A DNA stretch of 64,000 nucleotides from a virus (IMGVR_UViG_3300010340_000989:32001-96000); one strand, 5' to 3'. Shown: positions 12,601-62,928, numbered from the stretch's first letter. Translations and numbers: made by a program. Notes: generated by a model not told the origin, from the sequence alone.

Positions 12601-13554
12601 ACTAACATAAATATGGGATCTATTAGCGGCAATGCTTTTATTACTTCGGGGGATATATCTGGAAATATAATTGATGTTACAATTGGTACTACTCATTATA
12701 CATTTCAAAGTATCGATGTATCTGGAAATATTAAAAATATCAATACGAATGATGTACAGAATACCACATTTAATATTTCTAATCTAATTTCAGGAACAAT
12801 AACTGATATTATTATGGGTGATGTAAATACATCATTCACATTTAATTCATTAACTGGAATAGTAGCTAATATTATTATGGCGACGGTGAGTAGTGATGGG
12901 TTTCATGGAGGTGATATATCAGGTAAAGTATCTAATATTAAAATAGGTAATGTTTTGGGTACCGCTTTCTTTTTTGATACATTATCAGGAATAATAACTA
13001 ATGTTAATATTGGTAATGTTACTGAACAAATATTTTATGCTACCAAGGATATATCAGGAGAAATAAGCTATATAAATGCAGGAAATTGTAATAGTGGATT
13101 CTATTCTAATCTTGACATATCGAGTCAAATATCCAATGTTAATATGGGTATTATTTATAATTTTCCATTTTTTGCTAATGGTGATATCACCGGAATAATA
13201 AATTATATCAATGTATCTACTAATCCAACTTACTCATTTTATGCAAATAACATTTCATCAACAATGAGTTATATTAATTCTAACGGTGGTATTTATACCG
13301 GTGTAGATTTTAAAGGAAAATTAATAAATTGTGAATTCGATTGTAGAGGGAAAGGGATAACAGTAATTAATAATATTAATTCTAGCGCAGTAATTGAGAG
13401 ATGTAAATTACTTGCAGATTCTGGACAATATTCTATATCTGCTCCATCATCTACTAGTGTTAAAATAGTTTATACAGCTACAAATAGAGGATTTAATAAC
13501 GTCACATCATCGTTATCACCTAATTATAATATCAATAGTACGTCTATTATTTAA
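9670..13554 (+). CDS. Giant beta-solenoid repeat protein, paralog 3
   Basis: Same architecture as paralogs 1 and 2. Confidence 0.7.
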   Translation: MSHYPKIFDYAGSGGGGGLTFSGQNYVIVESVNTGVPATDGVTNGNRLLNGLIQLNSLDWGTRSLNSMGSLLLMPGTYNLVDQTITMIDFTNIVGISTNRRDTIITADSMATNQNHIYFGSGITAGLQNVELIADVANDAIMLGGDDTSFPIIENVYFGSENMLVNSLFNFGFNNLIGKYDNCEWISGINYAFSSNQDISATITDVKMGDVSFGFYALDNISGTISNIRMNTVNIGFVSNNGDISGTITNVIIGNVSSGFYSSSDISGKLTNIKIGDVINYAIGSSGNISGKINNVRIGEVSTGAFYATGTFSGIITDVIMGNVSGTAFRSQTGNISGLISDVIMGNFVGNGFRANTGDISAKITNITMGSGNNAFYAVNKISGTMSNITMGDITGIAFRSGASITAEITNINIGNVTGKSVFESNSDNISGKINHITMGDVGYAFNTPSGDISGTISDVIMGDGDISFYSLGIISGVISNITMGNFSSAFSALYGIEGIISNITMGDITNYAFNTDGDISAKITDVIIGDVTTAFLANDANISGIITNISMGNVLNGFSGNFISGTMSYIKMGSSTNAFSAANDISGTITSVIMGTVSSSFYANDFSGTINNVTIGTVSTSAFNIINEISGKISNINIGNVTGTYTFNIGTFSGTITDIMMGDVSYGFRSIGNMSGKISNITMGHSIYAFRSQNGDISGIITDIIMGSVSVAFFSPGSISGTITNITMGDVSTYTFYTSEGDISGKINNITMGDVNSKAFWSYTGDISGTITNITMGNVDYAFRTDSGTISGIIGDVIMGDVNNYAFLSNNGDISGTITDIIMNNVSITAFNSNLANISGVISNISMCGVSASVFNTSGDMSGSISNIIMGDCDSPFDISGDISGTITNIIMGISTNAFSGSDISGKISDVIMGTTSTSFLTTTGDISGAIDNIKMVGFGNGFHSTGNISGTITNIIMGDGDIAFYAETGNISGNITNINMGSISGNAFITSGDISGNIIDVTIGTTHYTFQSIDVSGNIKNINTNDVQNTTFNISNLISGTITDIIMGDVNTSFTFNSLTGIVANIIMATVSSDGFHGGDISGKVSNIKIGNVLGTAFFFDTLSGIITNVNIGNVTEQIFYATKDISGEISYINAGNCNSGFYSNLDISSQISNVNMGIIYNFPFFANGDITGIINYINVSTNPTYSFYANNISSTMSYINSNGGIYTGVDFKGKLINCEFDCRGKGITVINNINSSAVIERCKLLADSGQYSISAPSSTSVKIVYTATNRGFNNVTSSLSPNYNINSTSII

Positions 13555-13895
13555 CTATACAAATAACTTTCATATTTTTCCTCTTGATTTAAATCAATTT
13601 GAATATTGACTTCCTTTAAGGCAGTTTTAAATTGAGCAACTACTAAATTCATATGATCAAATTCTTCTTGATTTAATAAATTATCAATAACTAATTCTCT
13701 TTGATCTTCAATTGAAAATTTTGGACCGCATTCAATTTTTAAATCAATGGAATATCCAACTTTTCTTCTTAAAAAATTATTAATCATTTGATAATAAACA
13801 TTTTCCTCTTTTCTATACTTTTTAAATAAAAATATAGAAAAGATAACCATACGAGTTATGTGATTATGATTTATTTGTTGAACATCTAATTTCAT
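13551..13895 (-). CDS. Hypothetical protein with internal RxxxIDxLL motif
   Basis: ORF; QRELVIDNLL. Confidence 0.65.
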   Translation of the reverse strand: MKLDVQQINHNHITRMVIFSIFLFKKYRKEENVYYQMINNFLRRKVGYSIDLKIECGPKFSIEDQRELVIDNLLNQEEFDHMNLVVAQFKTALKEVNIQIDLNQEEKYESYLYS

Positions 13896-14128
13896 GATAA
13901 AATATTATCAATTTTTAAATCTCTAACTTCATCTTTACTTAAAAGATCTTTAAAATCAAATTTTGAATGACAGTCACCACAAGTAGGGTCACCATTTAAA
14001 GTAGAATAAACATTACCGGAAAGAGAAAGACATTTCGGACAATATAATTTACCAAAGGATTTCATCTCATTCATCTTTCTTATTCTATAATAAATCTCAG
14101 AGTGATTTCTACTTAAAATACCTTTCAT
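13892..14128 (-). CDS. Zn-ribbon protein with C-terminal RDxKI tag
   Basis: CPKC...CGDC; ends EVRDLKIDNILS; start moved to ATG 14128 because the track's TTG at 14185 lies inside a promoter motif. Confidence 0.65.
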   Translation of the reverse strand: MKGILSRNHSEIYYRIRKMNEMKSFGKLYCPKCLSLSGNVYSTLNGDPTCGDCHSKFDFKDLLSKDEVRDLKIDNILS

Positions 14129-14182
14129 ATATTTATCATATGAAAAAAAGCCTACATAGTTTATCAACTTTTGTATGTAATA

Positions 14183-14190
14183 CAAATATA
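14183..14190 (-). promoter_or_regulatory. Bacteroidota-type -7 promoter element TATATTTG
   Basis: Matches TAnnTTTG consensus, heads a minus-strand operon. Confidence 0.6.
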
Positions 14191-14212
14191 TACATGTATA
14201 TAAAATTAATTT

Positions 14213-14395: not shown

Positions 14396-14401
14396 TATAT
14401 A
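14393..14401 (+). promoter_or_regulatory. Putative late promoter TAATATATA
   Basis: Immediately upstream of 14406. Confidence 0.55.
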
Positions 14402-14405
14402 GTTA

Positions 14406-15931: not shown

Positions 15932-15934
15932 CTA

Positions 15935-21777: not shown

Positions 21778-22041
21778 TTAGATACCTAGAATTGATAAAT
21801 TTAACTCACGAAGATCCATAATATCATCTTTGTGTAGTTCATATCCTCTATAATCACCATCATCTAAATCATCGAATATATAAAATACCCAGTGATCATT
21901 AAGAAATGTTCCAGTCCATATAAATGCTAGATTGTATATTTTATTTTTGGTAAGCAACTTCTTACCAAAGAATATTGATGATTCTTTAGCATAAATATCT
22001 TCACCAATATATTTAATCTTATTTATCTTCAAGTATATCAT
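21778..22041 (-). CDS. Small LTxxKxY-family protein with C-terminal tag
   Basis: LTKNKIY; ends LRELNLSILGI. Confidence 0.6.
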   Translation of the reverse strand: MIYLKINKIKYIGEDIYAKESSIFFGKKLLTKNKIYNLAFIWTGTFLNDHWVFYIFDDLDDGDYRGYELHKDDIMDLRELNLSILGI

Positions 22042-22543
22042 CTATTTTACCGTCTCGAGTTGCTGCCTTGCTAACAGTTTTTTTCAACTGCGTGATATAA
22101 TTATCATATTTATCATTTAATTCTTTTTCTGAGAAATATTTATTTCTTTTTTCTAAAAAGTCGAATATATCTTTTTGAATACTTTTTGATTCATCAACCC
22201 AACTAATAAAATAAAAAGAATCTACTTCTCTTGTGTAATAATTAGTATCATGAGAAATTATCATTTTTGTTAAATATTTATCTGACTCATATCCCCAAAG
22301 TGATGTTTCCGCCTTTTTAAAAATATCGACATGGAACTTAAATTGCATGTCTTTTTTTCTAATATCAAAACTATATTTAACAATTCTACCTTCAAATGTG
22401 GATTCACTATACTGTGGGTGAATATACTTAATAGATGATATATTATCCGGTCTGATCCACATATCATCTTCAAAAGAAATAACGGATTGATAAACTGTTG
22501 TTAATAAGTCTTTTAGTTTTTCATTTTTCATTTTATTCTTCAT
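22019..22543 (-). CDS. Hypothetical protein with C-terminal tag
   Basis: ends TRDGKIDDILEDK. Confidence 0.7.
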   Translation of the reverse strand: MKNKMKNEKLKDLLTTVYQSVISFEDDMWIRPDNISSIKYIHPQYSESTFEGRIVKYSFDIRKKDMQFKFHVDIFKKAETSLWGYESDKYLTKMIISHDTNYYTREVDSFYFISWVDESKSIQKDIFDFLEKRNKYFSEKELNDKYDNYITQLKKTVSKAATRDGKIDDILEDK

Positions 22544-22820
22544 TTAATATGTTTTTTAGTTTGGCTTCTCGAAAAATTTGAGTAAATTTTTTATTATCAG
22601 ATAGTCCAATTATCTCATGTCTTTTATAAGAATAAAGTCTATTTTGGTTCATTTCATAAAAAACAACATCTCCATCATAGAATTCAACATAAATAAATCT
22701 ATCATCTAGTAATTTAGAAAATTTTATCTTACTAATACTAGTGCCAGGATATTGTTCGTGTATTATATCCTTAATGTTCATGATTACATTTTTTATGGTG
22801 TCTATAATCTCTAATACCAA
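22533..22820 (-). CDS. Hypothetical protein with C-terminal tag (start may be the later Met)
   Basis: ends FREAKLKNILNEE. Confidence 0.65.
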   Translation of the reverse strand: MVLEIIDTIKNVIMNIKDIIHEQYPGTSISKIKFSKLLDDRFIYVEFYDGDVVFYEMNQNRLYSYKRHEIIGLSDNKKFTQIFREAKLKNILNEE

Positions 22821-23022
22821 TTACTAAAGATGTGATTCCAATTATAGCCCAGATAAAAGCCAAAATCGGATTATGCATTAATTCATCAATCCAAGATTGA
22901 TGTTCATGAGATTCCATTGAATATGTTATTAAAAACATAGATTGGACAAATTGAATAATATGTGTTATTCCGTGTAGTAAATTTAAAACTCCAACCGAAA
23001 TAAGAAATAGTGATTTATTCAT
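22771..23022 (-). CDS. Small two-TM membrane protein
   Basis: Two hydrophobic segments, His-rich loop and tail. Confidence 0.65.
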   Translation of the reverse strand: MNKSLFLISVGVLNLLHGITHIIQFVQSMFLITYSMESHEHQSWIDELMHNPILAFIWAIIGITSLVIGIRDYRHHKKCNHEH

Positions 23023-23206
23023 TATTTAATATGTTATTAAGTGATATTTCTCTATATTCATCTATATCATAGAAATTATTAAAATCTGTTGTAATGATCT
23101 TATTTCTATCCGAAACTATTTTATATCTACAAGGCTTTACTTCAAGAACTTCATATGATTTACCCTTTGTTAGGTTATCTGTTTGTTTTTTCGATATTAC
23201 TATCAT
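23015..23206 (-). CDS. Small LTxGKxY-family protein with C-terminal tag
   Basis: LTKGKSYEV; ends YREISLNNILNNE. Confidence 0.65.
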   Translation of the reverse strand: MIVISKKQTDNLTKGKSYEVLEVKPCRYKIVSDRNKIITTDFNNFYDIDEYREISLNNILNNE

Positions 23207-23450
23207 TTAAAATTTTATTAAGTTTATAGTCACGAATTTCTCTTTCAAATTTTATTCTCGAATATGTATATGTTGCTAATGTCCTAGACTTATGATTCAA
23301 AACTAATTTTATTGTAAATGATTCATTATAATTTTGATGAAAATACATAGCCTCAATAATTTCTTTATCTTTTAACTTGGTCTTTGATAGTGTATTTTTG
23401 ATAAACCCTTCATCAAATCCCATATTTTTTAGTTTATCATCTATCCTCAT
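23175..23450 (-). CDS. Hypothetical protein with C-terminal tag
   Basis: IRDYKLNKILND. Confidence 0.65.
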   Translation of the reverse strand: MRIDDKLKNMGFDEGFIKNTLSKTKLKDKEIIEAMYFHQNYNESFTIKLVLNHKSRTLATYTYSRIKFEREIRDYKLNKILNDSNIEKTNR

Positions 23451-23709
23451 TTAAAATTTTATTAATTTTATAATCTCTTATAACAGGATTAATTTTATCT
23501 AAAATAAGTTTAACATGACTGCCATTTCCACTAGTATATCCAGAATAATACTCTGAAGCATTAATATCCCAATCTTTAATTAAATTAAAAATCACCTCAA
23601 AAAGTTCTGATTCAATTTCGTCTCTTGATGGACTTGGCATACCTGTAATACCTGTATTAGGTTTGGATGGTATGGGTGGTGTCGGAAATTTATTAGCTTT
23701 TATATTCAT
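23437..23709 (-). CDS. Hypothetical protein with C-terminal tag
   Basis: ends IRDYKINKILNEDR. Confidence 0.65.
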   Translation of the reverse strand: MNIKANKFPTPPIPSKPNTGITGMPSPSRDEIESELFEVIFNLIKDWDINASEYYSGYTSGNGSHVKLILDKINPVIRDYKINKILNEDR

Positions 23710-23935
23710 TTGAGAGTATTATTTTAAATTTATTATCTCTTATCATTTCTTTTGTTAAAGGTTTTAACCTTTTTTGATCAGAACACCAAAAACATCTATT
23801 ACCTTCATGTTGATAATGAAATGTAAATGTATATGAACAATCTTCACAATAATATTCTTCACATTTATCACAAACATCTTCAAAGATATTAAGTGAATAA
23901 CAAATATGACAATATTTGACTTCTTCTGACATCAA
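23693..23935 (-). CDS. Cys-rich Zn-finger protein with C-terminal tag
   Basis: Four CxxC pairs; IRDNKFKIIL. Confidence 0.65.
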   Translation of the reverse strand: MMSEEVKYCHICYSLNIFEDVCDKCEEYYCEDCSYTFTFHYQHEGNRCFWCSDQKRLKPLTKEMIRDNKFKIILSNEYKS

Positions 23936-24517: not shown

Positions 24518-24769
24518 ATGAATCTAATGAAATTTGAAAATTTTAAAAGCAGAGGCGAAATAAGAAAAGAAGCTGATCAACTTCTTGGTAATCTACATGC
24601 AGCCTTACTTGGTAATATTGCTTATGATAATAGAGAAAATATTAAAAAATCAGTAGAAAATATTAAAAATTCTAATATAAATTGGGATAAAGATGTTGTA
24701 AAATCTGTTAGAGAAAAGTATAATGAATTAATGAAAGCATTAGAATGGCATATGAATAATTGGAATTAA
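24518..24769 (+). CDS. Putative internal head protein
   Basis: MNLMKFENF; late motif upstream. Confidence 0.6.
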   Translation: MNLMKFENFKSRGEIRKEADQLLGNLHAALLGNIAYDNRENIKKSVENIKNSNINWDKDVVKSVREKYNELMKALEWHMNNWN

Positions 24770-24990
24770 ATTAAAATTGACAACTTTTTATCTCTATATT
24801 CAGTCAAACTTAAAAATCTATTTGAACAATAATAGAAAGATTCTCCAACATCATTAGTTATTAAATACTCTTTTAAATCTTTTATAGAATCAATATTTTT
24901 CGAAACAAAATATTTCTCACCGATTGTTAAATTAACTATATCACTTGATGCACCATCACAAACACCATTATTAATACAAACTACCCACAT
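24766..24990 (-). CDS. Small LTxGxKY-family protein with C-terminal tag
   Basis: VVCINN, LTIGEKY; ends YRDKKLSILI. Confidence 0.65.
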   Translation of the reverse strand: MWVVCINNGVCDGASSDIVNLTIGEKYFVSKNIDSIKDLKEYLITNDVGESFYYCSNRFLSLTEYRDKKLSILI

Positions 24991-25319
24991 AAACTATGTA
25001 TTTTTTGGGATCTGATAATATCTCTATTATAATAGAGATATAGTTTTTCATATTCAGGAATGTCACATTCTATCCAAATTGTTCTATCACTGCCATAAAC
25101 TATCTCTGGTAAATACTTTTCAAGAGGTTTGGCATTATAGTTAGTTCCTAATACATACCATTTGTTATCTATTCTCTTCCAATTCACTGATATACCAAAC
25201 CAAACAACCTCACCATTTTTATATTCGACTCTTTGTGTATTGTATGGTCTAATTGATGTGTTTTCAATTGAGTATTCAAATTCAAAATGTTCCGTTTTAT
25301 TTACTAGATTTATAGTCAT
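24981..25319 (-). CDS. Hypothetical protein with C-terminal tag
   Basis: ends IRSQKIHSLCG. Confidence 0.65.
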   Translation of the reverse strand: MTINLVNKTEHFEFEYSIENTSIRPYNTQRVEYKNGEVVWFGISVNWKRIDNKWYVLGTNYNAKPLEKYLPEIVYGSDRTIWIECDIPEYEKLYLYYNRDIIRSQKIHSLCG

Positions 25320-25680
25320 TATATAATTCTTTTATTTTATTGAATTTCTTATAATTTTCAAAAACATCTGATAAATCTGGATGAATTATAGAATCGACAT
25401 TTGATTTTGTAAAAAACGGATTTGTAGAGCATATAATTTTTTCCGAACTTCTAATAAATTGATATTGTTTTAGATACTTTTTCATAATTGTCGTGCAAAG
25501 TAGTTCATAATGTGAATAAAGTTTGTTCTTTTTAGTAAAAGGGAATAGTTTATAAACTTTTATAAGTTCTATAATTCTGGATTCATCATCAATATTTTCA
25601 AAATCAAAATTACTAAGATCTATAAAAGGTATATTATCACTTTTTAGTAAATTAAAAAACACTTCTAAAAAATTATTCAT
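25297..25680 (-). CDS. Hypothetical protein
   Basis: ORF in overlapping operon; weak tag KKFNKIKEL. Confidence 0.6.
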   Translation of the reverse strand: MNNFLEVFFNLLKSDNIPFIDLSNFDFENIDDESRIIELIKVYKLFPFTKKNKLYSHYELLCTTIMKKYLKQYQFIRSSEKIICSTNPFFTKSNVDSIIHPDLSDVFENYKKFNKIKELYNDYKSSK

Positions 25681-25982
25681 TCTATCAAAAAATCTATTTT
25701 ATATTCTCTTTCTAATGTGAGAATTTTTAACCAAGTTCCTGTTAAATCACTATTATTATAAATATATCCATCTATTTTACCATAATTGGATTTTTTAAAA
25801 TCTGATACTAATACATCTCTAATTTCATTCTCATTCGGACATTTAAAATTATTTTCTTCACAAGGTCTATCTAGTATATATGCGTTACTTAGATATAAGT
25901 AATCGGAAATAACTTTGAATACAGAATATTCTAAATTTTGATTATCAATATAAGTTAATTTAATTTTTTCAACTTTTATCAT
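25677..25982 (-). CDS. Hypothetical protein with C-terminal tag
   Basis: ends EREYKIDFLIE. Confidence 0.65.
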   Translation of the reverse strand: MIKVEKIKLTYIDNQNLEYSVFKVISDYLYLSNAYILDRPCEENNFKCPNENEIRDVLVSDFKKSNYGKIDGYIYNNSDLTGTWLKILTLEREYKIDFLIE

Positions 25983-26247
25983 TTAATAAATCATTAATTT
26001 TAATATCTCTGTTTTTAATAGTTGTTGGTGGTAGTTTTTTAACATCTTCAATTGTTTGAATAACTTGTTCAGGATTTAGATATCCCATAACATCATTTGT
26101 TATTGGAGTTTCATAACATATCTCATAATCTTCTTCTTCTCCAATTAAAATAGCGATTTCATATAAACCATTTAGACCACCATAAGAGAATTCATTTGAT
26201 ATTATACTAATACCATATCCATTTGAGTAAAAATATTTTTGATCCAT
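25969..26247 (-). CDS. Phage protein (NGYGISII...GLYEIA...TPITNDVMGYL) with C-terminal tag
   Basis: Domain resembles a widespread phage family; ends NRDIKINDLL. Confidence 0.7.
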   Translation of the reverse strand: MDQKYFYSNGYGISIISNEFSYGGLNGLYEIAILIGEEEDYEICYETPITNDVMGYLNPEQVIQTIEDVKKLPPTTIKNRDIKINDLLNDKS

Positions 26248-27033: not shown

Positions 27034-27213
27034 TTAATTTTCTAATACTTTATCGATATTAGCTTCTCTAATTTTTGCTCGAATCCAAGAAGTATCTTTT
27101 TCTAAGTCACTATCTGTAATAGATAATTGATCCATAATTGTTTTTAACAGAAGATTTCTGTTTTCATAGTAATAGCTTTGTTTTTCTGACATTTCGCCTT
27201 CTTGTGAAATCAT
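27034..27213 (-). CDS. Small protein with C-terminal tag (not in ORF track)
   Basis: 59 aa MISQEGEMSEK...IREANIDKVLEN. Confidence 0.6.
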   Translation of the reverse strand: MISQEGEMSEKQSYYYENRNLLLKTIMDQLSITDSDLEKDTSWIRAKIREANIDKVLEN

Positions 27214-27249: not shown

Positions 27250-27495
27250 TTAAATAAGTTGATCTAATAATTGATCAATTATTAAATCTCTTTTATTTTT
27301 AATCCACTCTTTATATAACTCAATTTTAACTATTTCAAACCAATAACTGCCAGGAAATCCATGATTTCCTATTTTAATATCGATATACACATAACCAATT
27401 TTAAATGATTCACAAAATGTATCAAGACCATGATGATCGTTATAAGAACGACATTCTTGTAAAAATTTTGTCAATAACTTTTCATTAACTTCCAT
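27250..27495 (-). CDS. Hypothetical protein with C-terminal tag
   Basis: KRDLIIDQLL. Confidence 0.65.
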   Translation of the reverse strand: MEVNEKLLTKFLQECRSYNDHHGLDTFCESFKIGYVYIDIKIGNHGFPGSYWFEIVKIELYKEWIKNKRDLIIDQLLDQLI

Positions 27496-35433: not shown

Positions 35434-35630
35434 TCACAATAATTAGCACAATCCTCTTTATCAAGATAGACTTTTTTACCTTGCTTTAAATAATAACATT
35501 CTCCAGATCGTTCTAACTTTAAATCTCCCTTTGTATAAAGTCTACAATCTGTTTCTCTTTTACTACAACTAACAAATAGTAGTAAAAATATTGTAAGTAT
35601 AAATTTATTCATTTTACCAAATTTTATCAT
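35430..35630 (-). CDS. Small lipoprotein
   Basis: MNKFILTIFLLLFVSC-SKRE. Confidence 0.65.
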   Translation of the reverse strand: MIKFGKMNKFILTIFLLLFVSCSKRETDCRLYTKGDLKLERSGECYYLKQGKKVYLDKEDCANYCD

Positions 35631-36315
35631 TTCTTAATCTTAATTCTTTAAAAATATCTTGACCAGTTTTAACCCATTGGTTCCAATTCATTCTGAGTTC
35701 AGCCTGATTAAATCCCAAAGCGCTTCCATTATTCCTTGTTACAAAAGACATAATACTTTCAGCACCTATTGAATGATGGTTATATTCGTTTTCACCACAC
35801 CCACAAGCCGTTGAACGACCATTATTGAACTCCCAAACCAATGGAATTAGTCCACAATCTTTGCAAGGCAACCACCATTGAGGATCTCCAACTTTAACAT
35901 AAGCGGGAATAGCTTTATATTTCTTACGATACTCAATCCATATATTCTTATATTCAATCTCTTCTTTCTTTTTCTCTAAGTTTTTAAGATAAGTTATGTC
36001 CGTAGCAATAAACAAGAGCATTGGATTATTGAATAATTCTTTATCTGGAATAGAATTTATAAATTCATCTCTAGTTAATTCTATAATTCTCCGATTTGGT
36101 TTATTTTTTATATGATGTAAAGCAGATCCTTTATCTTTCCAAAACTTGGCACAATAAATATACTCAGTTGATCTAGTTGGATTATGATAAACCAAATTTA
36201 CAGGATCACCAAATAACTCTGATAGTTTATTATCACGAGCAACTGATTTATCTTCTATTACTACACAATAAAAGGTATCTCTTTTACCAAGATAGATATC
36301 TATACTATTCATCAT
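35614..36315 (-). CDS. Hypothetical protein with Cys motifs and internal RDxKL motif
   Basis: ARDNKLSELF near N-terminus; CKDC...CGC. Confidence 0.7.
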   Translation of the reverse strand: MMNSIDIYLGKRDTFYCVVIEDKSVARDNKLSELFGDPVNLVYHNPTRSTEYIYCAKFWKDKGSALHHIKNKPNRRIIELTRDEFINSIPDKELFNNPMLLFIATDITYLKNLEKKKEEIEYKNIWIEYRKKYKAIPAYVKVGDPQWWLPCKDCGLIPLVWEFNNGRSTACGCGENEYNHHSIGAESIMSFVTRNNGSALGFNQAELRMNWNQWVKTGQDIFKELRLRNDKIW

Positions 36316-36517: not shown

Positions 36518-36787
36518 CTATTTAACTATCTTTTCTATTTTAAGATTTCTCAACTCTCTCTTATAAAAATCTGAAACATTGATAACACTTGGATCTGGAA
36601 TCTTCTTGGTTAGAATTCTAACAAGAATATCATCTGATAACCCAGTTATATCAAGACTAAACTTAGTTCGTTTAGATTTTTTAATGTGCAGAGTTGTTTC
36701 ATTCAGGTTATAGAACTTAATCTCTCCCGAATTTACCTTATTGTCTAATAAGGATTTAACTTTTGCTTTTATAAATATATTTTTCAT
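36518..36787 (-). CDS. Hypothetical protein with C-terminal tag
   Basis: ends LRNLKIEKIVK; TATATTTG at 36795-36802. Confidence 0.65.
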   Translation of the reverse strand: MKNIFIKAKVKSLLDNKVNSGEIKFYNLNETTLHIKKSKRTKFSLDITGLSDDILVRILTKKIPDPSVINVSDFYKRELRNLKIEKIVK

Positions 36788-40440: not shown

Positions 40441-41012
40441 TTTCCTTCTTCCATTTTACTAATTTTATCTCTTAATTCAGCAGCAACCTCATACTCTTCA
40501 TTTGAAATTGCGTCTTCCATCATTCTACGAAGATCATCAACTGACATAAGATTTTCTTTCTTTTTAGTCTTTTTCTTTGGTTTATCAGGAACCACATTTC
40601 CAGTATCATCTGTTTGTATACCACAAGATGCAAGTACATCTTCTGTTACATATAATGGACAATCAAATGTTAGTGCCAAGGCTAAAGCATCACCAACGGT
40701 GGTTTCAATTTCCAAATCATCTACTCCGTTATTTGTCGATATACGTGAATAAAAAACGCCTTCTAATACTTGATAAATACAAGCTTCTTGACAATCAATT
40801 CTATAACCATCAGCAAGTATTTTAAATACATCATGGGTTAATGGTCGAGGCATTTTCAATGATTCAATTTTTATTGCTATTGTTTGAGCATCTTGAGCCT
40901 TGATAACGATTGGCAATTTTCTATGTCCGTTTACTTCTGATAAAACAACAACATAAGCATTAGGTTGACTTTGTGAATATGAAAGTCCTATTATTTTTAC
41001 TTCTCTTTTCAT
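40437..41012 (-). CDS. Bifunctional nuclease (DUF151) with UVR domain
   Basis: LPIVI, PRPLTHD, GVFYS, DALALA, AISNEEYEVAAELRD. Confidence 0.88.
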   Translation of the reverse strand: MKREVKIIGLSYSQSQPNAYVVVLSEVNGHRKLPIVIKAQDAQTIAIKIESLKMPRPLTHDVFKILADGYRIDCQEACIYQVLEGVFYSRISTNNGVDDLEIETTVGDALALALTFDCPLYVTEDVLASCGIQTDDTGNVVPDKPKKKTKKKENLMSVDDLRRMMEDAISNEEYEVAAELRDKISKMEEGK

Positions 41013-41287
41013 TTTAATATTGAGTTAATTTGGAAAAACCGTTGATATGAAATATCACAAGCTAAATTTTCACGTATCAAATATAATAATTCTATATTAG
41101 AAACCAATCTTTTTTTATAATAATATTTTCTTTTTTTAGAAAAATCTACAATTATAAATTCATATTCATTATATTTTTTGTTTTTTTTAAGTTTAGAATC
41201 ATGAGATATTTCTTTTATAGCAAAAAACATATTCCTTTCCTGTGAAAGGAATATGTGTTTTATTCCATTAATATCATCATTATTCAA
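41009..41287 (-). CDS. Hypothetical protein with tag variant
   Basis: ends QRFFQINSILK. Confidence 0.5.
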   Translation of the reverse strand: MNNDDINGIKHIFLSQERNMFFAIKEISHDSKLKKNKKYNEYEFIIVDFSKKRKYYYKKRLVSNIELLYLIRENLACDISYQRFFQINSILK

Positions 41288-46562: not shown

Positions 46563-46623
46563 AAAAAAGAGGTTTAATTTTCCAATTATATATTGAAAAA
46601 TCAAACCTCCTTCCAAAATTAAA

Positions 46624-54013: not shown

Positions 54014-55591
54014 TTAATGTGTATTTTCTATACAGATTTGCTTTACTTTATTATTAGTCCTGCCGATTGGTACTTTTGTACCAACTGATATAATCAAAAC
54101 CCTTCCTTTGACTTTAGAAAAATCAAGATGATCGCAATAACCATCCGTGAGCAAAACCGTATTGAAATCATTATAATGATCAACTACATAATCAACAGAT
54201 GGTTGTAATACGGTACCTCCAAGACCATGAATTTTCATAGTTTCAAGTTTTTTCTTACTCTTGAAATTCTCAACCCATTTTACTTCGGTATCACCTTGAA
54301 TGAAGTTAATTTCAATATCATTACGATAAACATAAGAAAGAACTCTTTCAAATGTACCTTGACCACCCATTGATCCTGATGTATCAAGAATTACGTTTAC
54401 TTTACTCTTAATCTTACGATTACCTTTCAATCCTGGAATTTGACGACGATTTGGTTTAACAATTGTTTTATGTTTGATGTGTCCAAAAATCATATTAGAA
54501 ACAGAACGTTTGATTTCTTTCAAATAATCTTTACGTTGTTTACGAAGTTTGTTAAGAGTTGTCTCAACATTTCCAGCTGAAAGACCACGAGATGCAAGTC
54601 GATCCATTACGTCACGAACCATAGCCTCACGCATTTCTTCGGGTACATCATCTCCAATGTGTTTATCAAGGTATTCGCCAGTACCATTCTCCAAATCTTG
54701 GAAGATTTGATCAGTACTCCAAGTATCCATAGGATCTCCTTTACCAGCTGGATTTTTACCATAAGGCCCATATGATGGTTTACCAGACGCATCTTTACCA
54801 CCTTCATTACCAGTTCCACCACAGTCTGGACAAGACTCACCTTGGCCACCCCCACCATTACCGTTCTGACCTTGTCCCTGACCTTGACCTGGTTGTTGAC
54901 CTTGTCCCTGACCTTGACCTGGTTGTTGACCTTGACCTTGTCCCTGACCTTGAACTGGTTGTTGACCTTGACCTTGTCCCTGACCTTGACCTGGTTGTTG
55001 ACCTTGACCTGGTTGTTGACCTTGACCCGATTTATTATCTTTTTTACCAGTACCATTACAAGTTTGGCATTGTGAGTTCTTACATTTGCCTTCTTTTTGT
55101 TTCTTTTGAAACTTATCTTTCTCTTCTTTCAACCACTCATATAACTCCTCAAAGATAAGTTTGCCTGGATAATCTTTTGGAATGAATAAAGCCATGTTTT
55201 TACCATCTTTATTCTTAGGGATTTCTACGAAAGAATGTGAAATATCTTCCCAAATAACATGATTAATAATCATATCTTGAGCAATATTAGACAATTTATG
55301 TTCGTACTGACCAGTAATAGTTCTACGTGGGTGATTAAACAAAAGGTGAAAATCCTCATGTAGAGTAATGAAGTTTACTTCTTTTTGAGACATATCCTCA
55401 AGGAACTTTGGAGAGTAGAAGAAATTCATACCCTTTGAGGTTACATTTACCGCACAAGTTCCAATAGAGTCTTGCTCATGAAAACTAATGTGTAAGTTGA
55501 ATTCTCCATAATATGGAAGATTAACCTTTGTATCAATCAACATTGTCTGAATTGAATTCAGTAATTTCTCATGTATATTCTTTACTATCAT
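54014..55591 (-). CDS. DUF2201-type metallopeptidase + VWA domain protein (MoxR partner)
   Basis: HEDFH, NIAQD.IN, MIDAS DTSGSM, GLGGT, LTDGY. Confidence 0.88.
   Translation of the reverse strand: MIVKNIHEKLLNSIQTMLIDTKVNLPYYGEFNLHISFHEQDSIGTCAVNVTSKGMNFFYSPKFLEDMSQKEVNFITLHEDFHLLFNHPRRTITGQYEHKLSNIAQDMIINHVIWEDISHSFVEIPKNKDGKNMALFIPKDYPGKLIFEELYEWLKEEKDKFQKKQKEGKCKNSQCQTCNGTGKKDNKSGQGQQPGQGQQPGQGQGQGQGQQPVQGQGQGQGQQPGQGQGQGQQPGQGQGQGQNGNGGGGQGESCPDCGGTGNEGGKDASGKPSYGPYGKNPAGKGDPMDTWSTDQIFQDLENGTGEYLDKHIGDDVPEEMREAMVRDVMDRLASRGLSAGNVETTLNKLRKQRKDYLKEIKRSVSNMIFGHIKHKTIVKPNRRQIPGLKGNRKIKSKVNVILDTSGSMGGQGTFERVLSYVYRNDIEINFIQGDTEVKWVENFKSKKKLETMKIHGLGGTVLQPSVDYVVDHYNDFNTVLLTDGYCDHLDFSKVKGRVLIISVGTKVPIGRTNNKVKQICIENTH
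54866..55028 (-). repeat. Tandem Gly-Gln coding repeat
   Basis: GGTCAAGGTCAACAACCA / GGTCAAGGTCAGGGACAA units. Confidence 0.9.
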
Positions 55592-55640: not shown

Positions 55641-55641
55641 A

Positions 55642-56120: not shown

Positions 56121-57842
56121 TTATTTAATAATGTCTGTTGGTTCATTAAAGGTAATGAAATCCTTAAACTTTGTATCATTTTCAATATTCTCAATATGTT
56201 GTTTTGCAACATCTTTAATTCCGATTTCTTCAGCCATTTTTAAAATATCCTGTTTCATATCTGTCACATCTTGTGTCTTTTCTTCTTCTTTACTCTCATA
56301 AGAGTTAGATCCACTAACTCTATCAAATTCTGGATTTTGTTCAAATCCCATACGAATCATCTTATCAACTAATTGATGCCAAGTCATATCACCACGATAC
56401 TCGAACTCAGTAGGTGAAATCATAGTTACTTTACCCAGTAAATCAATTTTATTAATTTTTTGATAAACTTCTCGGTCAACTGATTTAGATTCATCAACTT
56501 GACCTTGTTTTTGAATCTTAATTGTATAATACCCTTTAGTCAACATTTGAATAACCACTGGTGTATTAAGTTTCAAAATAGGTGCAATTTTTTCAACAAC
56601 TGCAACCAAATTTTCATCTGGATCAATACCAGTTTTATTTTCTGTTGATACAAAGAAATCATAACCAATTGGTAATTCTTTTGGTTGTAATGAAATAAGA
56701 CGGCTATTTAGAACTTTCAAATCATCAGAAGATGATACGATTCTAGATTCAGCTTGTTTAACATCCATTTTCAACTTAGAGATTTCTTTCTCGGTCTTTT
56801 CAATACGGTTTTTTAGTTCTTCGACTTTTTCAGCATTCATTTTTTCAAATGACTCACGCATATATCGTTGAGACGCAGTTTCTTTTATTTCAGGAATTGA
56901 TTCTATAATTTCTTCATCAGATTCACCCTCAAATTCTCTTTTTAATTCTTCATCTGTTTCTGAACTAAAAAGAGCATTAAGGATAGACATTCCTGATTCA
57001 GAAACATCTGTTTGTTTCTGATTTTCTTTATCAAATAGTGAAAATAACATATCAATTGGTTTTTTGTGTTCTACTTCAAGGTAACAAGGCTTAGCATCTT
57101 CATCTTGAAAATTAAGACCAGCCACAACAAACTTTTGTGTATATCCAGTTACATCACGATCATCAATATCATCGATGAAACGTTGAATCATTTCTGGGGT
57201 TGAAAAGGTAGTATCCATTTCTTCAAAATTGATAGTTCCTTCATCACAAATAGTGATTTTAAAAATAGATCCTTCTAACATACCGGATAATTGTTCTCCT
57301 TTAATAAAGGCAACATTATTCAATAGTCGAATTCTCCCTTGAAGACCAGTAACAAAATTTAAAAATTTTCGTTTTGGTTTGTATTTACCAATAACCACTT
57401 CCTTATCCACCTCAGTTTGTTCATCAGTTTTATTCTTTTCATCAAGAATAACATAACCATCACCATCTAATTCAAGTGCATTAGATACTTTATCAATATT
57501 TTCTAAATTATTTTTAGAACTTAGAATTTCATCAATAGTTATCTTTGTTAATATATCAGTTTTAACTTCATCAGAAACCGCCCAACAATCTTCTCCTGTA
57601 ATTGGATCTTCAAAAATATCATTTTTCTCAGCAAATTCTTTTGCTTTTTCAAGCCATTTTGTAGTATTAAACTGATCAAAAAATTCTTGATCCTGAGGTT
57701 TAACATAGACATTCATGTTTCCGTCTTGTATATCTACTTGAAACATCAGTCCTTCAAGTAATCGTTCAGCGACTGAATATCCATCAAATTGTGCAGTTTT
57801 TATAGTCTTACCTGACTCTGTTTCGAAGTGTTTAAATTTCAT
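56121..57842 (-). CDS. Acidic coiled-coil hypothetical protein
   Basis: Coiled coil EKVEELKNRIEK...; duplicated LEG.(M/I)F module. Confidence 0.75.
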   Translation of the reverse strand: MKFKHFETESGKTIKTAQFDGYSVAERLLEGLMFQVDIQDGNMNVYVKPQDQEFFDQFNTTKWLEKAKEFAEKNDIFEDPITGEDCWAVSDEVKTDILTKITIDEILSSKNNLENIDKVSNALELDGDGYVILDEKNKTDEQTEVDKEVVIGKYKPKRKFLNFVTGLQGRIRLLNNVAFIKGEQLSGMLEGSIFKITICDEGTINFEEMDTTFSTPEMIQRFIDDIDDRDVTGYTQKFVVAGLNFQDEDAKPCYLEVEHKKPIDMLFSLFDKENQKQTDVSESGMSILNALFSSETDEELKREFEGESDEEIIESIPEIKETASQRYMRESFEKMNAEKVEELKNRIEKTEKEISKLKMDVKQAESRIVSSSDDLKVLNSRLISLQPKELPIGYDFFVSTENKTGIDPDENLVAVVEKIAPILKLNTPVVIQMLTKGYYTIKIQKQGQVDESKSVDREVYQKINKIDLLGKVTMISPTEFEYRGDMTWHQLVDKMIRMGFEQNPEFDRVSGSNSYESKEEEKTQDVTDMKQDILKMAEEIGIKDVAKQHIENIENDTKFKDFITFNEPTDIIK

Positions 57843-57860: not shown

Positions 57861-57891
57861 CAAATATAGGTATAAAATCTTACTTATCAAA
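57861..57891 (-). promoter_or_regulatory. Bacteroidota-type promoter
   Basis: TTTG-N19-TATATTTG. Confidence 0.7.
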
Positions 57892-58251
57892 AATTTTGTT
57901 TAGTTTTAAATCTCTGACTTCATCTTTAGTATAAAGTTTTGGCAAAGATTCGCCATTATCGGTAACTCGATTATTATTGAGTCTTTCTTTAAAAAAATTC
58001 AAATCAGTATCTTCATTTGGCAAAGAACCATTATGTATTTTTAAAATATTTTTAATTTCATAAATGAATGGAGAAAAATTTTGACATACTGTTAAATCTT
58101 CTTCATCATGATTATCAATACAAGTCTCTAACAAAAAATATAACTCACTTTTTGAAAGTTCTTTCATTTTTTCTCTTTGATCAGAAACATTAAAGTTTTT
58201 ATAAATCTCAACAAACAATTGAGATACTATTAATTCATTTTTTTCGTACAT
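57880..58251 (-). CDS. Hypothetical protein with C-terminal tag
   Basis: ends KDEVRDLKLNKIFDK. Confidence 0.7.
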   Translation of the reverse strand: MYEKNELIVSQLFVEIYKNFNVSDQREKMKELSKSELYFLLETCIDNHDEEDLTVCQNFSPFIYEIKNILKIHNGSLPNEDTDLNFFKERLNNNRVTDNGESLPKLYTKDEVRDLKLNKIFDK

Positions 58252-58740
58252 TTATATTCCTAGTTTTGTTAATTGATATTCTCGATATTCTTGTTTCCCA
58301 ACAGATCCTAGCTCATAAGCTCTTCTGAAAAAAACTTCAAATAAATGTTCATGCCCCATTTCTTTTGCAGCCATTGCCCTATTTATACTCTTAAATTCAT
58401 CTGTAATACGATTGGCTTGTGTTTGAGCTAACATAATTTGCTTATCCTGATCGTTGGATTTAGAAATTATATCTTCAATTCGTTTGAAGTTTTTTTGAAT
58501 TTCACTTTTTGATTGTCCGTTGTATTTCATAGTTTTTGTTAAAAATACTTTTAAAAATAAATCAAAGCTTTTTTGTCCTCTTTCATTCTTATGACCAGAT
58601 TTATTAGTATGTTGTGATTTGATCCAAAACCAATTAAGCATTTCAAATTCATGTTTTATTTCATCTCTATTTTTCAAAAATATTTGATATTTTTTTATCT
58701 CGATATTCTTGTATAGATAATTTTTTTGAAATGTTGTCAA
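58252..58740 (-). CDS. Hypothetical protein with C-terminal tag (true start probably downstream)
   Basis: ends YREYQLTKLGI; annotated 5' end overlaps upstream gene by 74 nt. Confidence 0.6.
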   Translation of the reverse strand: MTTFQKNYLYKNIEIKKYQIFLKNRDEIKHEFEMLNWFWIKSQHTNKSGHKNERGQKSFDLFLKVFLTKTMKYNGQSKSEIQKNFKRIEDIISKSNDQDKQIMLAQTQANRITDEFKSINRAMAAKEMGHEHLFEVFFRRAYELGSVGKQEYREYQLTKLGI

Positions 58741-59062
58741 TTTTATCTATAGATTTTTGATCTGATGGTTTTAAAGAATTAAAATAAAAATTACACAAAT
58801 ATTCTCTAATACTCATCATAGGATCTATAAAATTATGTTCATAAATAGTCAAATTTAAATCCTTTGAACTTAGAGTTATCCAACCTTTACTTAAAGTCCA
58901 ACCCGTATCTATTTCTAATTTCCAAGTAACATAAAACTCAAATTTAACATCATCAATCACAATAGACATACAAACGTTATTGACCGGCTTCCAAATTACT
59001 CGACCATTTATAGTTTGTTCTGATAGATTTTCTATCATTATTTGTAGTGAATCTTTAATCAT
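58667..59062 (-). CDS. Hypothetical protein with C-terminal tag
   Basis: ends YRDKKISNIFEK. Confidence 0.7.
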   Translation of the reverse strand: MIKDSLQIMIENLSEQTINGRVIWKPVNNVCMSIVIDDVKFEFYVTWKLEIDTGWTLSKGWITLSSKDLNLTIYEHNFIDPMMSIREYLCNFYFNSLKPSDQKSIDKIDNISKKLSIQEYRDKKISNIFEK

Positions 59063-60083: not shown

Positions 60084-60109
60084 ATGACAAATATACGGAG
60101 AAAGAACAA

Positions 60110-60439
60110 CTAAACCAAAATTTTATCTATCTTGTTTTCTCTATAATTACTGATAATTTTAGTAATTAATTCATCTTTATCTTTATAAGAAACACCAGTC
60201 AATTCAGATATAACAGCAACAAACATAAGAGATACGTCACTCTCACAGTCAATCTTTTTCCACTCACCATTAAGTCTGAAAAATACCTCTCCATCATTAG
60301 TTATTTCTAATAACTTTTCATTACTTGGTGAATTTATAGTAAGAGTATTTGGTGATTGAATATATGATAATGTGTTATTGTTTGTAAAATTTGATATATC
60401 AATTGAATTAGATTGTGTCATATATGTTATATGACACAA
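60110..60439 (-). CDS. Hypothetical protein with C-terminal tag
   Basis: ends YRENKIDKILV. Confidence 0.65.
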   Translation of the reverse strand: MCHITYMTQSNSIDISNFTNNNTLSYIQSPNTLTINSPSNEKLLEITNDGEVFFRLNGEWKKIDCESDVSLMFVAVISELTGVSYKDKDELITKIISNYRENKIDKILV

Positions 60440-60467
60440 TCATAACTAAGTTATAGTATCGATAAGA

Positions 60468-60668: not shown

Positions 60669-61027
60669 TATTTGATGTAGTTTTTATATTTTTGATTATA
60701 ACTAACTGGTATTGACTCACATCTTTCAAGTCTCTCTTTTAATAGAAGCATTTTAAAGGACTTAGAACTATTAAACAGAGATTTTTTCTCAATCTTATAT
60801 AAATCAATTATTCTATTCTCAACAAAATAAACATAATAAGCACTATATCTTTGTCGAGAATCTGCTACTTTCTCAATAGACTCTAGATTTAGATCGATAT
60901 CTGGGATTCGATTCTTGAAATTTCTAGCAATATTATAAAAATGTTGACGAGTCTCGTCATATCCATTTGAGATTAACATTTTTGAAATGTTATTATCAAT
61001 GTGATTTTTAATTGTCTCCGCTTTCAT
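60668..61027 (-). CDS. Hypothetical protein
   Basis: ORF in operon. Confidence 0.6.
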   Translation of the reverse strand: MKAETIKNHIDNNISKMLISNGYDETRQHFYNIARNFKNRIPDIDLNLESIEKVADSRQRYSAYYVYFVENRIIDLYKIEKKSLFNSSKSFKMLLLKERLERCESIPVSYNQKYKNYIK

Positions 61028-61430
61028 TTTCTAATATTTTACTAATTAAATAGTCTCTCGACCAACTTTTATCATCAAAGATAAATCCACTATACAATCC
61101 TGAAATTAAATAACCATCAATTGTAAGAAGACCACCTCTTCTTTGCAAAGATATGAATTTTTTCTTAATTTTCCAATTTTGAGACAATATTTGAAGGAAT
61201 CGATCCTTAAAAGGTATTAGATAATAAGTAGGTAACTCATTAGAATGTCTACGCTCATCTGGATCGATTCTATATCTAACCTTTATTCTTAAAGTATCAA
61301 TTATTCTAATTGAACCCTCATGAGCAGCAAATATAGGAACTTTATAGTCTATTTGTATTTTATAATCAGATAGTTTTCTGATTCTAAACCGACCATCCTC
61401 GTTTTTCAATTCTTCTATAATTGGGTTCAT
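61008..61430 (-). CDS. Hypothetical protein with C-terminal tag
   Basis: SRDYLISKILE. Confidence 0.6.
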   Translation of the reverse strand: MNPIIEELKNEDGRFRIRKLSDYKIQIDYKVPIFAAHEGSIRIIDTLRIKVRYRIDPDERRHSNELPTYYLIPFKDRFLQILSQNWKIKKKFISLQRRGGLLTIDGYLISGLYSGFIFDDKSWSRDYLISKILENESGDN

Positions 61431-61938
61431 CTTTTATTTTCTGTAAGTATGAGATTAGTTTAAGTAATTCAGTATCATCTGAATCATCTGTAAATTCCTT
61501 TATTAAAATTAAGTTACCATAGTTATTAACAGCGGTTTCTTTTTTATCATCAATTATTAAAATATTATTTAAATCATATCCACTCTTCTTCAATTTATTA
61601 AGATTTTTTATGCCATAGTAATCCGAGTAATCGTAACTAAGTTTGATAGTACATTTATCTTTTGTATAAAAGAACTTTAATGATGATTCTAATATTCCGA
61701 TGTTTTTTATAATTTCTTTTGCGTAATCTTCTCCTGCTGCAGTCCAGATTGCAACATCAAAATTTTCATAAGCAAAATCTAAAAACTGATCAAGATAAGG
61801 ACGTTTTTTAGTATAATATAAAGATTTTCCATTTCCTTTAAACTTAAAATCATAATCATACTTATCTGCATATTCATCTGGAACATTTTCAGTATGGATT
61901 AGAGTTTCATCAATATCAAGAATTAAAAGAGGTTTCAT
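61384..61938 (-). CDS. HAD phosphatase, FCP1/SCP (NIF) family
   Basis: LILDIDETLIH, KRPYLDQFL, WTAAGEDYA, IIDD. Confidence 0.88.
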   Translation of the reverse strand: MKPLLILDIDETLIHTENVPDEYADKYDYDFKFKGNGKSLYYTKKRPYLDQFLDFAYENFDVAIWTAAGEDYAKEIIKNIGILESSLKFFYTKDKCTIKLSYDYSDYYGIKNLNKLKKSGYDLNNILIIDDKKETAVNNYGNLILIKEFTDDSDDTELLKLISYLQKIKDEPNYRRIEKRGWSV

Positions 61939-61941
61939 TTA

Positions 61942-62532
61942 TTATATATTTTTTAAATACTTTTTATTCACAAAATAGAGTAAAAACCCAGTTAATGCAC
62001 CACCTACGTGTGCCCAATGTCCTACACCATCTGATGTTGAAAACATACCAAGTAATACTTCTATGACAATCAATGCACCAACCATATATTTTGCTTTGAT
62101 TCCAATTGGGATAAAGAATAAATATAGTTTTTCATTTGGATGAATGATTGAGAATAATACAAGCAATCCAAATAAAGCACCAGATGCGCCAACCATAGGT
62201 ATATTTACACTATTTGTTAATGACATATGTAATAGTGCAGAACCTATTCCACATAGTAAGTAAAATGGTACAAACTTCTTCTCACCAAGAAATTTCTCAA
62301 CGAATGGACCTATACTTAGTAGAGCTAACATATTAAATATAATATGAATAAATCCAGCATGTAAAAATTGATGTGTGATAAGTTGCCAAGGATAAAAGTT
62401 ATCACCTTTATATGACCATTGTGCAAAATATTCAAATACACTGAAATTTATACAAGCTAATATTAGCGTGAGTGAAAAAGCCAGTACATTGATCCAAAAG
62501 ATTTTTTTAATTAGAGGTGTTCCTTCAAACAT
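61942..62532 (-). CDS. Rhomboid intramembrane serine protease
   Basis: WQLITHQFLH, HIIFNM, GASG, AHVGG; promoter TATATTTG 62551-62558. Confidence 0.92.
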   Translation of the reverse strand: MFEGTPLIKKIFWINVLAFSLTLILACINFSVFEYFAQWSYKGDNFYPWQLITHQFLHAGFIHIIFNMLALLSIGPFVEKFLGEKKFVPFYLLCGIGSALLHMSLTNSVNIPMVGASGALFGLLVLFSIIHPNEKLYLFFIPIGIKAKYMVGALIVIEVLLGMFSTSDGVGHWAHVGGALTGFLLYFVNKKYLKNI

Positions 62533-62568
62533 ATTTTTTTATTTAGAACACAAATATACAAATAAAAT

Positions 62569-62928
62569 CTAAGATAACAAGTTTTTTATTTTCACATCAC
62601 GTTGAATATTCTTTATTATATTCAGTTTTTCCATATGATCTTCATATATTTGTGATGATGGATCCATCAAAGTCCTTGATGTCCATCTTTTTAACTTTTC
62701 AGTTAAATAAATTAATTCAATTTCAGTAATTTCTTTAGAATTATATTTCAACCAATCTTTTTGTATATAATCTGGCATTTTCTCAATATCATTGAATTTA
62801 TCTAAAGAATCTGTTAATATCATATATCTATCATCATTCTTAATTATAAGATGCACTATCTTAACTAGTGATTGATCATCATAGTATTCAAGATGAGTCA
62901 CATATTCACCAAATGGTAGGTCTTTCAT
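62569..62928 (-). CDS. Hypothetical protein with C-terminal tag
   Basis: ends QRDVKIKNLLS. Confidence 0.7.
   Translation of the reverse strand: MKDLPFGEYVTHLEYYDDQSLVKIVHLIIKNDDRYMILTDSLDKFNDIEKMPDYIQKDWLKYNSKEITEIELIYLTEKLKRWTSRTLMDPSSQIYEDHMEKLNIIKNIQRDVKIKNLLS

Follow-up and report, generated by a model that had tools for sequence, protein, structure and literature searches.

The window analyzed here, a 64,000-nucleotide stretch of viral DNA spanning bases 32001–96000 of the 164,996-bp IMG/VR record IMGVR_UViG_3300010340_000989, encodes a large set of small proteins that end in one and the same short peptide. The consensus of this C-terminal tag is [ILV]-R-[DE]-x-K-[IL]-N-x-[IL]-[LG]-x(0-4)-stop, and a tail hidden Markov model (HMM) finds it on 41 proteins of the record, 16% or about one in six of its genes. 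The carriers have a median length of 97 residues (range 59–287), and among genes of at most 150 residues 32 of 112 (29%) are tagged. Judged by sequence comparison and structure models, the tag is a portable module, predicted to be helical, that is appended to dissimilar bodies. We give about an even chance to the reading that through this helix the carriers dock on, or are tethered to, one partner, most likely host-encoded or host-derived.

The tag is strongly enriched at protein ends. Within our own longest-open-reading-frame (ORF) greedy calls, 247 genes in the record, the strict pattern R[DE].K[ILV]..[ILV][LFIV] matched 21 times, 19 of them C-terminal (within 10 residues of the end) and two internal. 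Shuffling whole proteins left an expectation of 0.015 C-terminal matches, and shuffling the last 30 residues alone left 0.034, with a maximum of 1. A comparison with shuffled C-termini had been proposed in an earlier, sequence-only reading of the window that pointed to the tag, and at 19 observed against ~0.03 expected it bears that observation out. Pattern against shuffle is also the independent test here, the tail HMM having been trained on the hits themselves. Every peptide quoted earlier is present at the minus-strand ORF end to which it was assigned. Among the 23 C-terminal cases then listed, 21 score 9.4–19.7 bits with the tail HMM, the motif ending 0–9 residues before the stop, and the two at 24981 and 41009 proved degenerate. 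Two internal copies had been listed as well; the one in the gene at 35614 fits the strict pattern, and the one at 13551 is weak (4.6 bits). The statement that all carriers lie on the minus strand holds inside the window but not for the whole record, where 37 of 41 are on the minus strand and four, all outside the window, on the plus strand.

A second shared peptide, M-[KR]-x-[ILVFY]-[KR]-x-[FY] (MKYLKRFE, MKHLKRFN, MKSYKQFINES), opens 23 genes, 20 of them on the plus strand, at window positions 14406–62483 and genome-wide, often in tandem. This N-terminal M-K-x-L-K-x-F leader resembles the capsid-targeting leader of T4-like phages. No gene has both tags, as the sequence-only reading had said of its carriers.

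To describe the tail we aligned 118 non-identical examples from this phage and ~45 other phage contigs. The aligned consensus, K(-4)-[SQ]-[EK]-[ILV]-R-[DE]-x-K-[IL]-N-x-[IL]-[LG], is mostly followed by 1–4 residues and rarely by up to 11 (the modal number after the 9-mer is 1, the range 0–11), and the identity of these trailing residues varies. The arginine is unchanged in 118 of 118 tails. Many tails are preceded by an S/T-x-x-E helix N-cap box and a Pro/Gly-rich linker. On a helical wheel of the consensus, by our own calculation, I-1, K3, I7, R0, I4, L8 and D1 fall on one contiguous face, with the variable residues opposite. AlphaFold2 (AF2) models of two carrier families agree with a helical end: the 123-residue family (predicted local distance difference test score, pLDDT, 83) has a helical body and a tail helix at residues 109–117, and the 141-residue family (pLDDT 87.5) has a tail helix at 128–138 after a GSVG loop. 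A Foldseek search of the PDB with the 123-residue carrier model returned no match. The tag is best described as a portable and, by prediction, free-standing C-terminal helix of ~14–18 residues, joined to its body by a variable, often Pro/Gly-rich linker. A resemblance of one tail, VRDLKIDNIL, to the protein kinase catalytic loop [HY]RDLKxxN[IL]L was judged coincidental. A PDB profile search with the tail returned only kinase catalytic loops, at chance level (E ~1), and none of the carriers searched matched Pkinase, the carriers measuring 59–287 residues against ~250 residues for the kinase fold.

The bodies in front of the tail are dissimilar, as the sequence-only reading had maintained. By BLAST within this genome the 41 bodies are 41 singletons, and 119 carriers drawn from many phages form 100 clusters. 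Zn-ribbon motifs occur in three carriers, and both carriers that were modelled are predicted to be all-helical; the presence of several unrelated folds among the carriers is partly shown. A Pfam search found no domain in 30 carriers of this genome and one, NUMOD4, in the 119 carriers from many phages. That sole Pfam-positive carrier is a 254-residue NUMOD4 homing-endonuclease-type protein at 8796–9557 (minus strand) of a 38-kb IMG/VR contig (L048), with the end ...YYRDNKINLILTP. Among 20 carriers searched against PHROGs, only phrog_4074 was matched.

The phrog_4074 body (25969–26247) also answers a question that the sequence-only reading had posed, whether bodies have tag-less homologues elsewhere. 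In Polaribacter phage Freya_2, Synechococcus phage S-CREM1 and a Vibrio phage, the homologous proteins stop exactly where the 20-residue PPTTIKNRDIKINDLLNDKS of the window protein starts. Two other families keep the tail. The 123-residue family (31 sequences, 47–78% identity) has a conserved body, a gap-rich linker and a near-invariant LPxxYT[KR][DE]EVR[DE]LKLNKIFDK, and among 698 relatives of the 141-residue carrier a YREYQLSKLGI-type tail is present in all of the best 120. The 573-residue protein at 56121–57842 is untagged; in its orthologue from the huge phage LR745206 an additional domain follows at the C-terminus, with the tag at its end. Strains of this phage differ in islets of small tagged genes. 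In one such comparison, a 72-residue tagged gene (L007, 18169–18387) corresponds to a 144-residue ORF (L008, 17145–17579) in which a 3′ extension leaves the tag internal, 80 residues from the end. Because the bodies share no BLAST links, tail-less homologues exist, the linker is variable and orthologues gain or lose the tag, we conclude that the tail is an appended, portable module. It is very improbable that the carriers are instead one old gene family whose bodies have diverged beyond recognition, with only the C-terminal helix constrained. Tandem runs of carriers, including the neighbors at 23175 and 23437 with near-identical tails (IRDYK[LI]NKILN), would fit such a family, but the tail-less phrog_4074 homologues in distant phages, bodies of 59–287 residues that include both Zn-ribbon and all-helical types, and the orthologue pair differing in the tag all speak against it.

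Selection acts on the peptide. The sequence-only reading had argued this from the lack of a conserved DNA repeat, and codon usage agrees: arginine and Ile/Leu codons are mixed at the motif positions, the arginine being written AGA 33, CGT 3 and CGA 3 times, the same as genome usage, and the two Ile/Leu positions using eight codons from three families. The A-rich leaders of this genome might seem to offer another source. Genes abut or overlap, the 20 nucleotides upstream of starts are ~55% A and <10% G across the genome, and Shine-Dalgarno sequences precede 5% of genes against a background of 10%, so that all C-termini are biased to Lys, Asn and Ile. Composition bias cannot make the ordered motif, because the motif is lost when the last 30 residues are shuffled, and we ruled out a composition or leader artefact on this ground. 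That the tag is a by-product of nucleotide constraints, whether the A-rich leader of the next gene or gene boundaries serving as recombination sites, is largely refuted and hardly credible, since the local shuffle destroys the motif, non-carriers lie at the same distance from the next gene as carriers, several arginine and Ile/Leu codons are in use, and the tags at 24766 and 27034 precede convergent genes; the tag at 24766 serves no downstream start for this reason. Such A-rich leaders without Shine-Dalgarno sequences are characteristic of how Bacteroidota initiate translation.

The likely source is a T4-related giant phage that infects Bacteroidota. The record has a G+C content of 27% and a CheckV completeness of 52%, and because an identical 371-residue protein sits on a 479,895-bp metagenome scaffold, we take the record to be a piece of a ~480-kb phage. 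Its nearest GenBank relatives are the uncultured huge phages LR745206 and LR756502 (634–642 kb). The features that suggest such a source are a T4-type head module (found in the sister genome), gp32, topoisomerase II, Rnl1, a type IX secretion system (T9SS) CHU_C domain, a TonB-dependent receptor, PnuC and the A-rich leaders without Shine-Dalgarno sequences. Three tandem paralogues of ~1300 residues, all starting MSHYPKI[FL]D, follow two collagen-repeat proteins (1138 and 1534 residues) at window 1782–13554 (plus) and genome 25585–33639 (plus) and are probably fibres.

We next asked how far the tag extends beyond this phage. A degenerate DNA pattern for R-D-x-K-I-N-x-I-L was scanned against 2.9 million viral contigs and, for comparison, against bacterial and archaeal genomes totalling 596 Gb. 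In viral contigs 44 of 66 matches fell at ORF ends, against 9 of at least 120 in cellular genomes among the matches listed (Fisher p = 1.6e-17 for 44/66 against 9/120 among the matches listed). Host proteins ending in the motif, as mimicry would require, were isolated hits with no tag cluster among the matches listed. With a looser DNA pattern, counted per record against its reversed control, this record (G000) gave 20 matches against 2, the 476-kb G002 41 against 3, the 385-kb G010 23 against 1 and LR745206 64 against 3. LR756501, LR756504, G011 and G023 had little or no pattern excess; G011 (676 kb), considered as a tag-rich genome lacking ClpC, gave 6 strict matches against 5 in the control and is not evidence. 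No enrichment was seen in three cultured phages (Tenacibaculum phage PTm1, Polaribacter phage Freya_2 and Nonlabens phage P12024L), and tblastn of a 22-residue tail against cultured phages returned nothing, the query being too short. In LR756501 (L018, 735 kb), two small proteins at 46539–46901 (minus) and 47860–48027 (minus) end in ...[MV]DPYGEENWD(K); this phage is without the R-D-x-K-I tag, and the ending may be a shared C-terminal peptide of another kind.

The tag also occurs in small genomes. G015 (32.4 kb) and G030 (32.1 kb) each have six tagged small genes among 48, and three or four are present in G022 (36.8 kb), a record flagged as a provirus. The CheckV completeness of each of these genomes is 99–100%. 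Their tagged genes, which include the 'LGI/LGL' variant, adjoin an integrase candidate or sit in the early region, the integrase being probable and named from position and size. Because the G030 terminase is nearest to those of Nonlabens and Riemerella phages, the small-phage hosts are probably Flavobacteriia. By these sequence comparisons, the tag is not limited to huge phages and extends from 32-kb temperate-type to >600-kb genomes, which is new here.

Which protein might read the tag? Several phage-encoded candidates are present in the record. Its ClpC (genome 149615–151729, minus; L006:1618–3729) has the N-domain replaced by ~40 acidic residues and retains both AAA modules, the UVR middle domain and the VGF ClpP loop. 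Full-length ClpC in Flavobacterium, Lutibacter, Algoriphagus and Cyclobacterium genomes (Flavobacteriia and Cytophagia) is 68–69% identical to the phage copy. An Hsp70 of DnaK type (621 residues) lies at genome 109818–111683 (plus), and a probable DnaJ-like protein of 344 residues, called from its N-terminus MSKDYYQILEV... only, lies at 114921–115955 (plus) with a tagged carrier directly upstream. A vWA protein with the metal ion-dependent adhesion site DTSGS (window 54014–55591, minus) is fused to a HExxH metallopeptidase at its N-terminal end, the two being connected by a Gly/Gln-rich linker that contains CxxC pairs. Six tagged genes stand upstream of it on the same strand, and a weak MoxR-like AAA_5 ATPase (window 42298–43413, minus) is 11 kb away. 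Pairs of a MoxR-like ATPase and a vWA-HExxH peptidase are known in T4-like jumbo phages (PMC7824862).

None of these turned up in the small tagged phages, and none is likely to be the reader common to all tagged phages. ClpC, Hsp70 and the vWA peptidase are absent from the near-complete 32–37 kb tag-bearing phages, and the vWA peptidase is missing from all four tag-bearing genomes of 32–38 kb (G015, G022, G030 and G025), so phage ClpC, Hsp70 and the vWA–MoxR pair were ruled out as a shared reader on phyletic grounds. The genes that small tag-bearing phages have in common with this phage are only collagen repeats, GIY-YIG and methylase-like genes. Among the hubs suggested in the sequence-only reading, a phage scaffold and the MoxR/VWA chaperone consequently do not stand as the common reader: the small phages lack the vWA peptidase, and scaffold mimicry fails in the sister phage LR745206, whose protease-scaffold protein ends ...AIMERFKSI and is untagged. 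We also rejected a sliding-clamp hypothesis. The C-terminal piece of the LR745206 DNA polymerase ends ...VVMDIFGGFK, a T4-like clamp tail, and no gp45-type clamp was detected in this record or LR745206. The family B polymerase of LR745206 is split into two ORFs of 474 and 513 residues ~100 kb apart (130568–131992, minus, and 232803–234344, plus). Because the small tagged phages lack every phage-encoded candidate, a common reader is unlikely to be phage-encoded.

We therefore consider a host protein the most likely partner, since phages of very different size and gene content share the tag but no plausible reader gene. The conserved face, with its invariant arginine amid an Ile/Leu stripe, would act as a docking or tethering handle, and the tail would bring every carrier to one common partner. 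That partner may be a conserved Bacteroidota host protein or a host-derived protein copied by the giants, for example ClpC. A ClpC-type unfoldase, that of the host for small phages and a deregulated version of their own for the giants, is consistent with the data, if unproven. ClpC as such is neither supported nor excluded as the reader, and a complex prediction for the N-domain-less ClpC with the 123-residue carrier family gave no answer (score 0.00), which is neither support nor counter-evidence. Among the alternatives of the sequence-only reading, a host machine and a degradation signal are now the favored candidates. Carriers are encoded on the other strand from the fibre and N-tagged genes and probably serve as accessory proteins of the early or middle phase. 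Docking, the host origin of the reader and the effect of docking are what we infer from these patterns; docking may deliver the carriers or the targets bound to them, or may mark the carriers for degradation.

Several points weigh against a docking helix with a single host partner. The tail helix has a pLDDT of 75–90 in both AF2 models and may pack on the body instead of being free. A short helix could also act without any reader. Small-phage tags might have a different reader from giant-phage tags. CheckV can misjudge the completeness of linear contigs, so that the small records may omit a reader gene. Lastly, the 'early' timing is deduced from strand segregation alone.

A pure degron or timer is the rival that survives best, and we regard it as possible but unlikely. 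Here the tail would limit the lifetime of early proteins by marking them for an AAA+ protease, of Clp type or another. Host candidates are ClpC/ClpP, ClpXP, Lon and FtsH; the giants could use their own N-domain-less ClpC with ClpP from phage or host. The terminal position, the small carriers on the non-late strand and the 68% identical full-length ClpC of the hosts suit it, as does the fact that all four tag-rich giants (G000, G002, G010 and LR745206) encode an N-domain-less ClpC with the VGF ClpP-docking loop. G002 encodes ClpP as well; G010, 95% complete, does not. Against it, the motif lies 0–11 residues (most often one) from the carboxyl end with variable residues trailing, which may fit poorly with reading of a free C-terminus, and a predicted helix with one conserved face is more typical of domain docking than of pore-loop engagement. 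ClpC homologues also occur in LR756501 and LR756504 despite little or no tag enrichment there.

A bolder variant would make the tail a universal adaptor handle. The variable body would grip a host target, such as a defence protein, and the tail would plug into a host ClpC/ClpP-type AAA+ protease, of which the giants carry a deregulated, N-domain-less copy, so that carriers would resemble proteolysis-targeting chimeras (PROTACs). We consider this doubtful; if it were true, the phage would devote a fifth of its proteome to a collection of degraders.

For the tag in general, the closest known architecture is an adaptor of the SspB type, whose XB peptide sits on the ClpX N-domain: SspB combines a folded body, a flexible variable linker and a short conserved C-terminal peptide, an arrangement found in the 123-residue family. 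SspB and ssrA likewise involve a terminal, basic and hydrophobic peptide, and a Clp-type unfoldase is present in phage and host. The sequences differ, however, and the tag is predicted to be helical and up to 11 residues from the end. SspB is one adaptor, whereas the tag covers ~16% of the proteome with a Clp link that is a candidate only, and the SspB tether binds an unfoldase N-domain that phage ClpC does not have.

A shared oligomerization helix, by which carrier tails pair or bundle into mixed accessory assemblies, is improbable. The helix is amphipathic with an Ile/Leu stripe, and C-terminal oligomerization helices are common in small phage regulators such as lambda CII. Yet the hydrophobic positions span only ~1.5 heptads, the invariant arginine and a lysine lie within the hydrophobic face, and forty different proteins that all self-pair through one helix would mispair.

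It is quite improbable, too, that the tail is a capsid-loading signal, a C-terminal counterpart of the T4 capsid-targeting sequence (CTS), an encapsulin cargo peptide or a scaffold coat-binding helix. In its favor are the T4-type head module of the phage, the large second group of proteins tagged at the N-terminus and the 'LGI' ending, which loosely recalls encapsulin cargo peptides. But carriers are opposite in strand to the fibre and N-tagged genes, the scaffold of LR745206 is untagged, and the small-phage tagged genes lie beside integrase or early genes, not the head module. Carriers are scattered in non-structural regions. The CTS of T4 internal proteins and Alt is nevertheless the nearest phage precedent for a shared address peptide. 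It is common to unrelated phage proteins, as the tag is, and this phage also has a CTS-like N-terminal tag. Its defining features are not found in the C-terminal tag: the CTS sits at the N-terminus of late packaged proteins, where the head protease cleaves after [LI]-x-E, whereas the tag is C-terminal, has no cleavage motif and is encoded on the other strand.

Three further systems offer partial likenesses. Clamp-binding peptides (T4 gp43, gp33 and gp55; the PIP box) are also short C-terminal h-x-x-h-h peptides that dock several proteins on one hub, but the sister-phage polymerase tail is different and the tag carriers far outnumber any known clamp clientele. The MIM1 helices of ESCRT-III, read by the MIT domain of the AAA+ machine Vps4, are likewise C-terminal and amphipathic with a conserved arginine and leucine; phage ClpC, however, has no N-terminal docking domain, no MIT-like protein is known here, and the organisms are unrelated. 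Dot/Icm C-terminal signals and poxvirus ANK/PRANC adaptors share the principle of unrelated bodies plugging into one machine through one terminal module, whereas their modules are longer or compositional, with known readers, and the tag is a fixed 9-mer. Our literature search found no published account of the C-terminal tag, in keeping with the sequence-only reading, which knew of no description. New here are the homologues that lack the tail, the way viral genomes contrast with cellular ones, the small phages without phage-encoded candidates and the relationship to host ClpC.

Tagged genes in the window, with tail HMM scores; the last three rows are two earlier-listed genes that are not supported carriers and one gene with an internal copy.
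Coordinates	Strand	Length (residues)	Tail	Score (bits)	Remarks
13892..14185	-	97	...LSKDEVRDLKIDNILS	18.1	CxxC..CxxC (Zn-ribbon) body; tail at nt 13898-13942
21778..22041	-	87	...MDLRELNLSILGI	9.4	'LGI' variant
22019..22543	-	174	...ATRDGKIDDILEDK	11.6	no Pfam or PHROG match
22533..22820	-	95	...IFREAKLKNILNEE	16.1	
23015..23206	-	63	...EYREISLNNILNNE	15.7	
23175..23450	-	91	...EIRDYKLNKILNDSNIEKTNR	19.5	motif ends 9-10 residues before stop
23437..23709	-	90	...VIRDYKINKILNEDR	19.7	
23693..23935	-	80	...MIRDNKFKIILSNEYKS	15.9	CxxC..CxxC body
24766..24990	-	74	...EYRDKKLSILI-stop	13.5	next gene convergent
25677..25982	-	101	...LEREYKIDFLIE	12.4	
25969..26247	-	92	KKLPPTTIKNRDIKINDLLNDKS	15.8	phrog_4074 body
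27034..27213	-	59	...KIREANIDKVLEN	14.9	next gene convergent
27250..27495	-	81	...NKRDLIIDQLLDQLI	11.6	
36518..36787	-	89	...ELRNLKIEKIVK	15.1	Asn at position 2; retained in strains L007 and L008
39779..40108	-	109	...IIRNLKINLLLK	17.7	
57880..58251	-	123	LPKLYTKDEVRDLKLNKIFDK	18.8	predicted helical body, variable linker
58252..58677	-	141	GSVGKQEYREYQLTKLGI	15.4	predicted all-helical; true start 58677
58667..59062	-	131	...EYRDKKISNIFEK	16.4	
60110..60439	-	109	...NYRENKIDKILV	17.6	
61008..61430	-	140	...WSRDYLISKILENESGDN	15.8	
62569..62928	-	119	...IQRDVKIKNLLS	12.2	
24981..25319	-			-0.9	listed earlier as IRSQKIHSL; not a supported carrier
41009..41287	-			-1.1	listed earlier as QRFFQINSIL; not a supported carrier
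35614..36315	-	233		7.5	internal, N-proximal copy ARDNKLSELF (residues 27-35), matching the strict pattern; kept in strains L007 and L008

In large phages, the majority of small early genes are functional dark matter, and one peptide on 10–30% of them would allow hundreds of orphan proteins to be approached experimentally at once. Identifying its reader would assign every carrier to a pathway. As a tool, the tag might be moved to other proteins to target or destabilize them in Bacteroidota, where genetic tools are few, and it provides an easily scanned marker for predicting the hosts of uncultured phages. Taken together, tagged phages that differ greatly in size and share only their host phylum point to a host hub that is systematically exploited by the phages of Bacteroidota.

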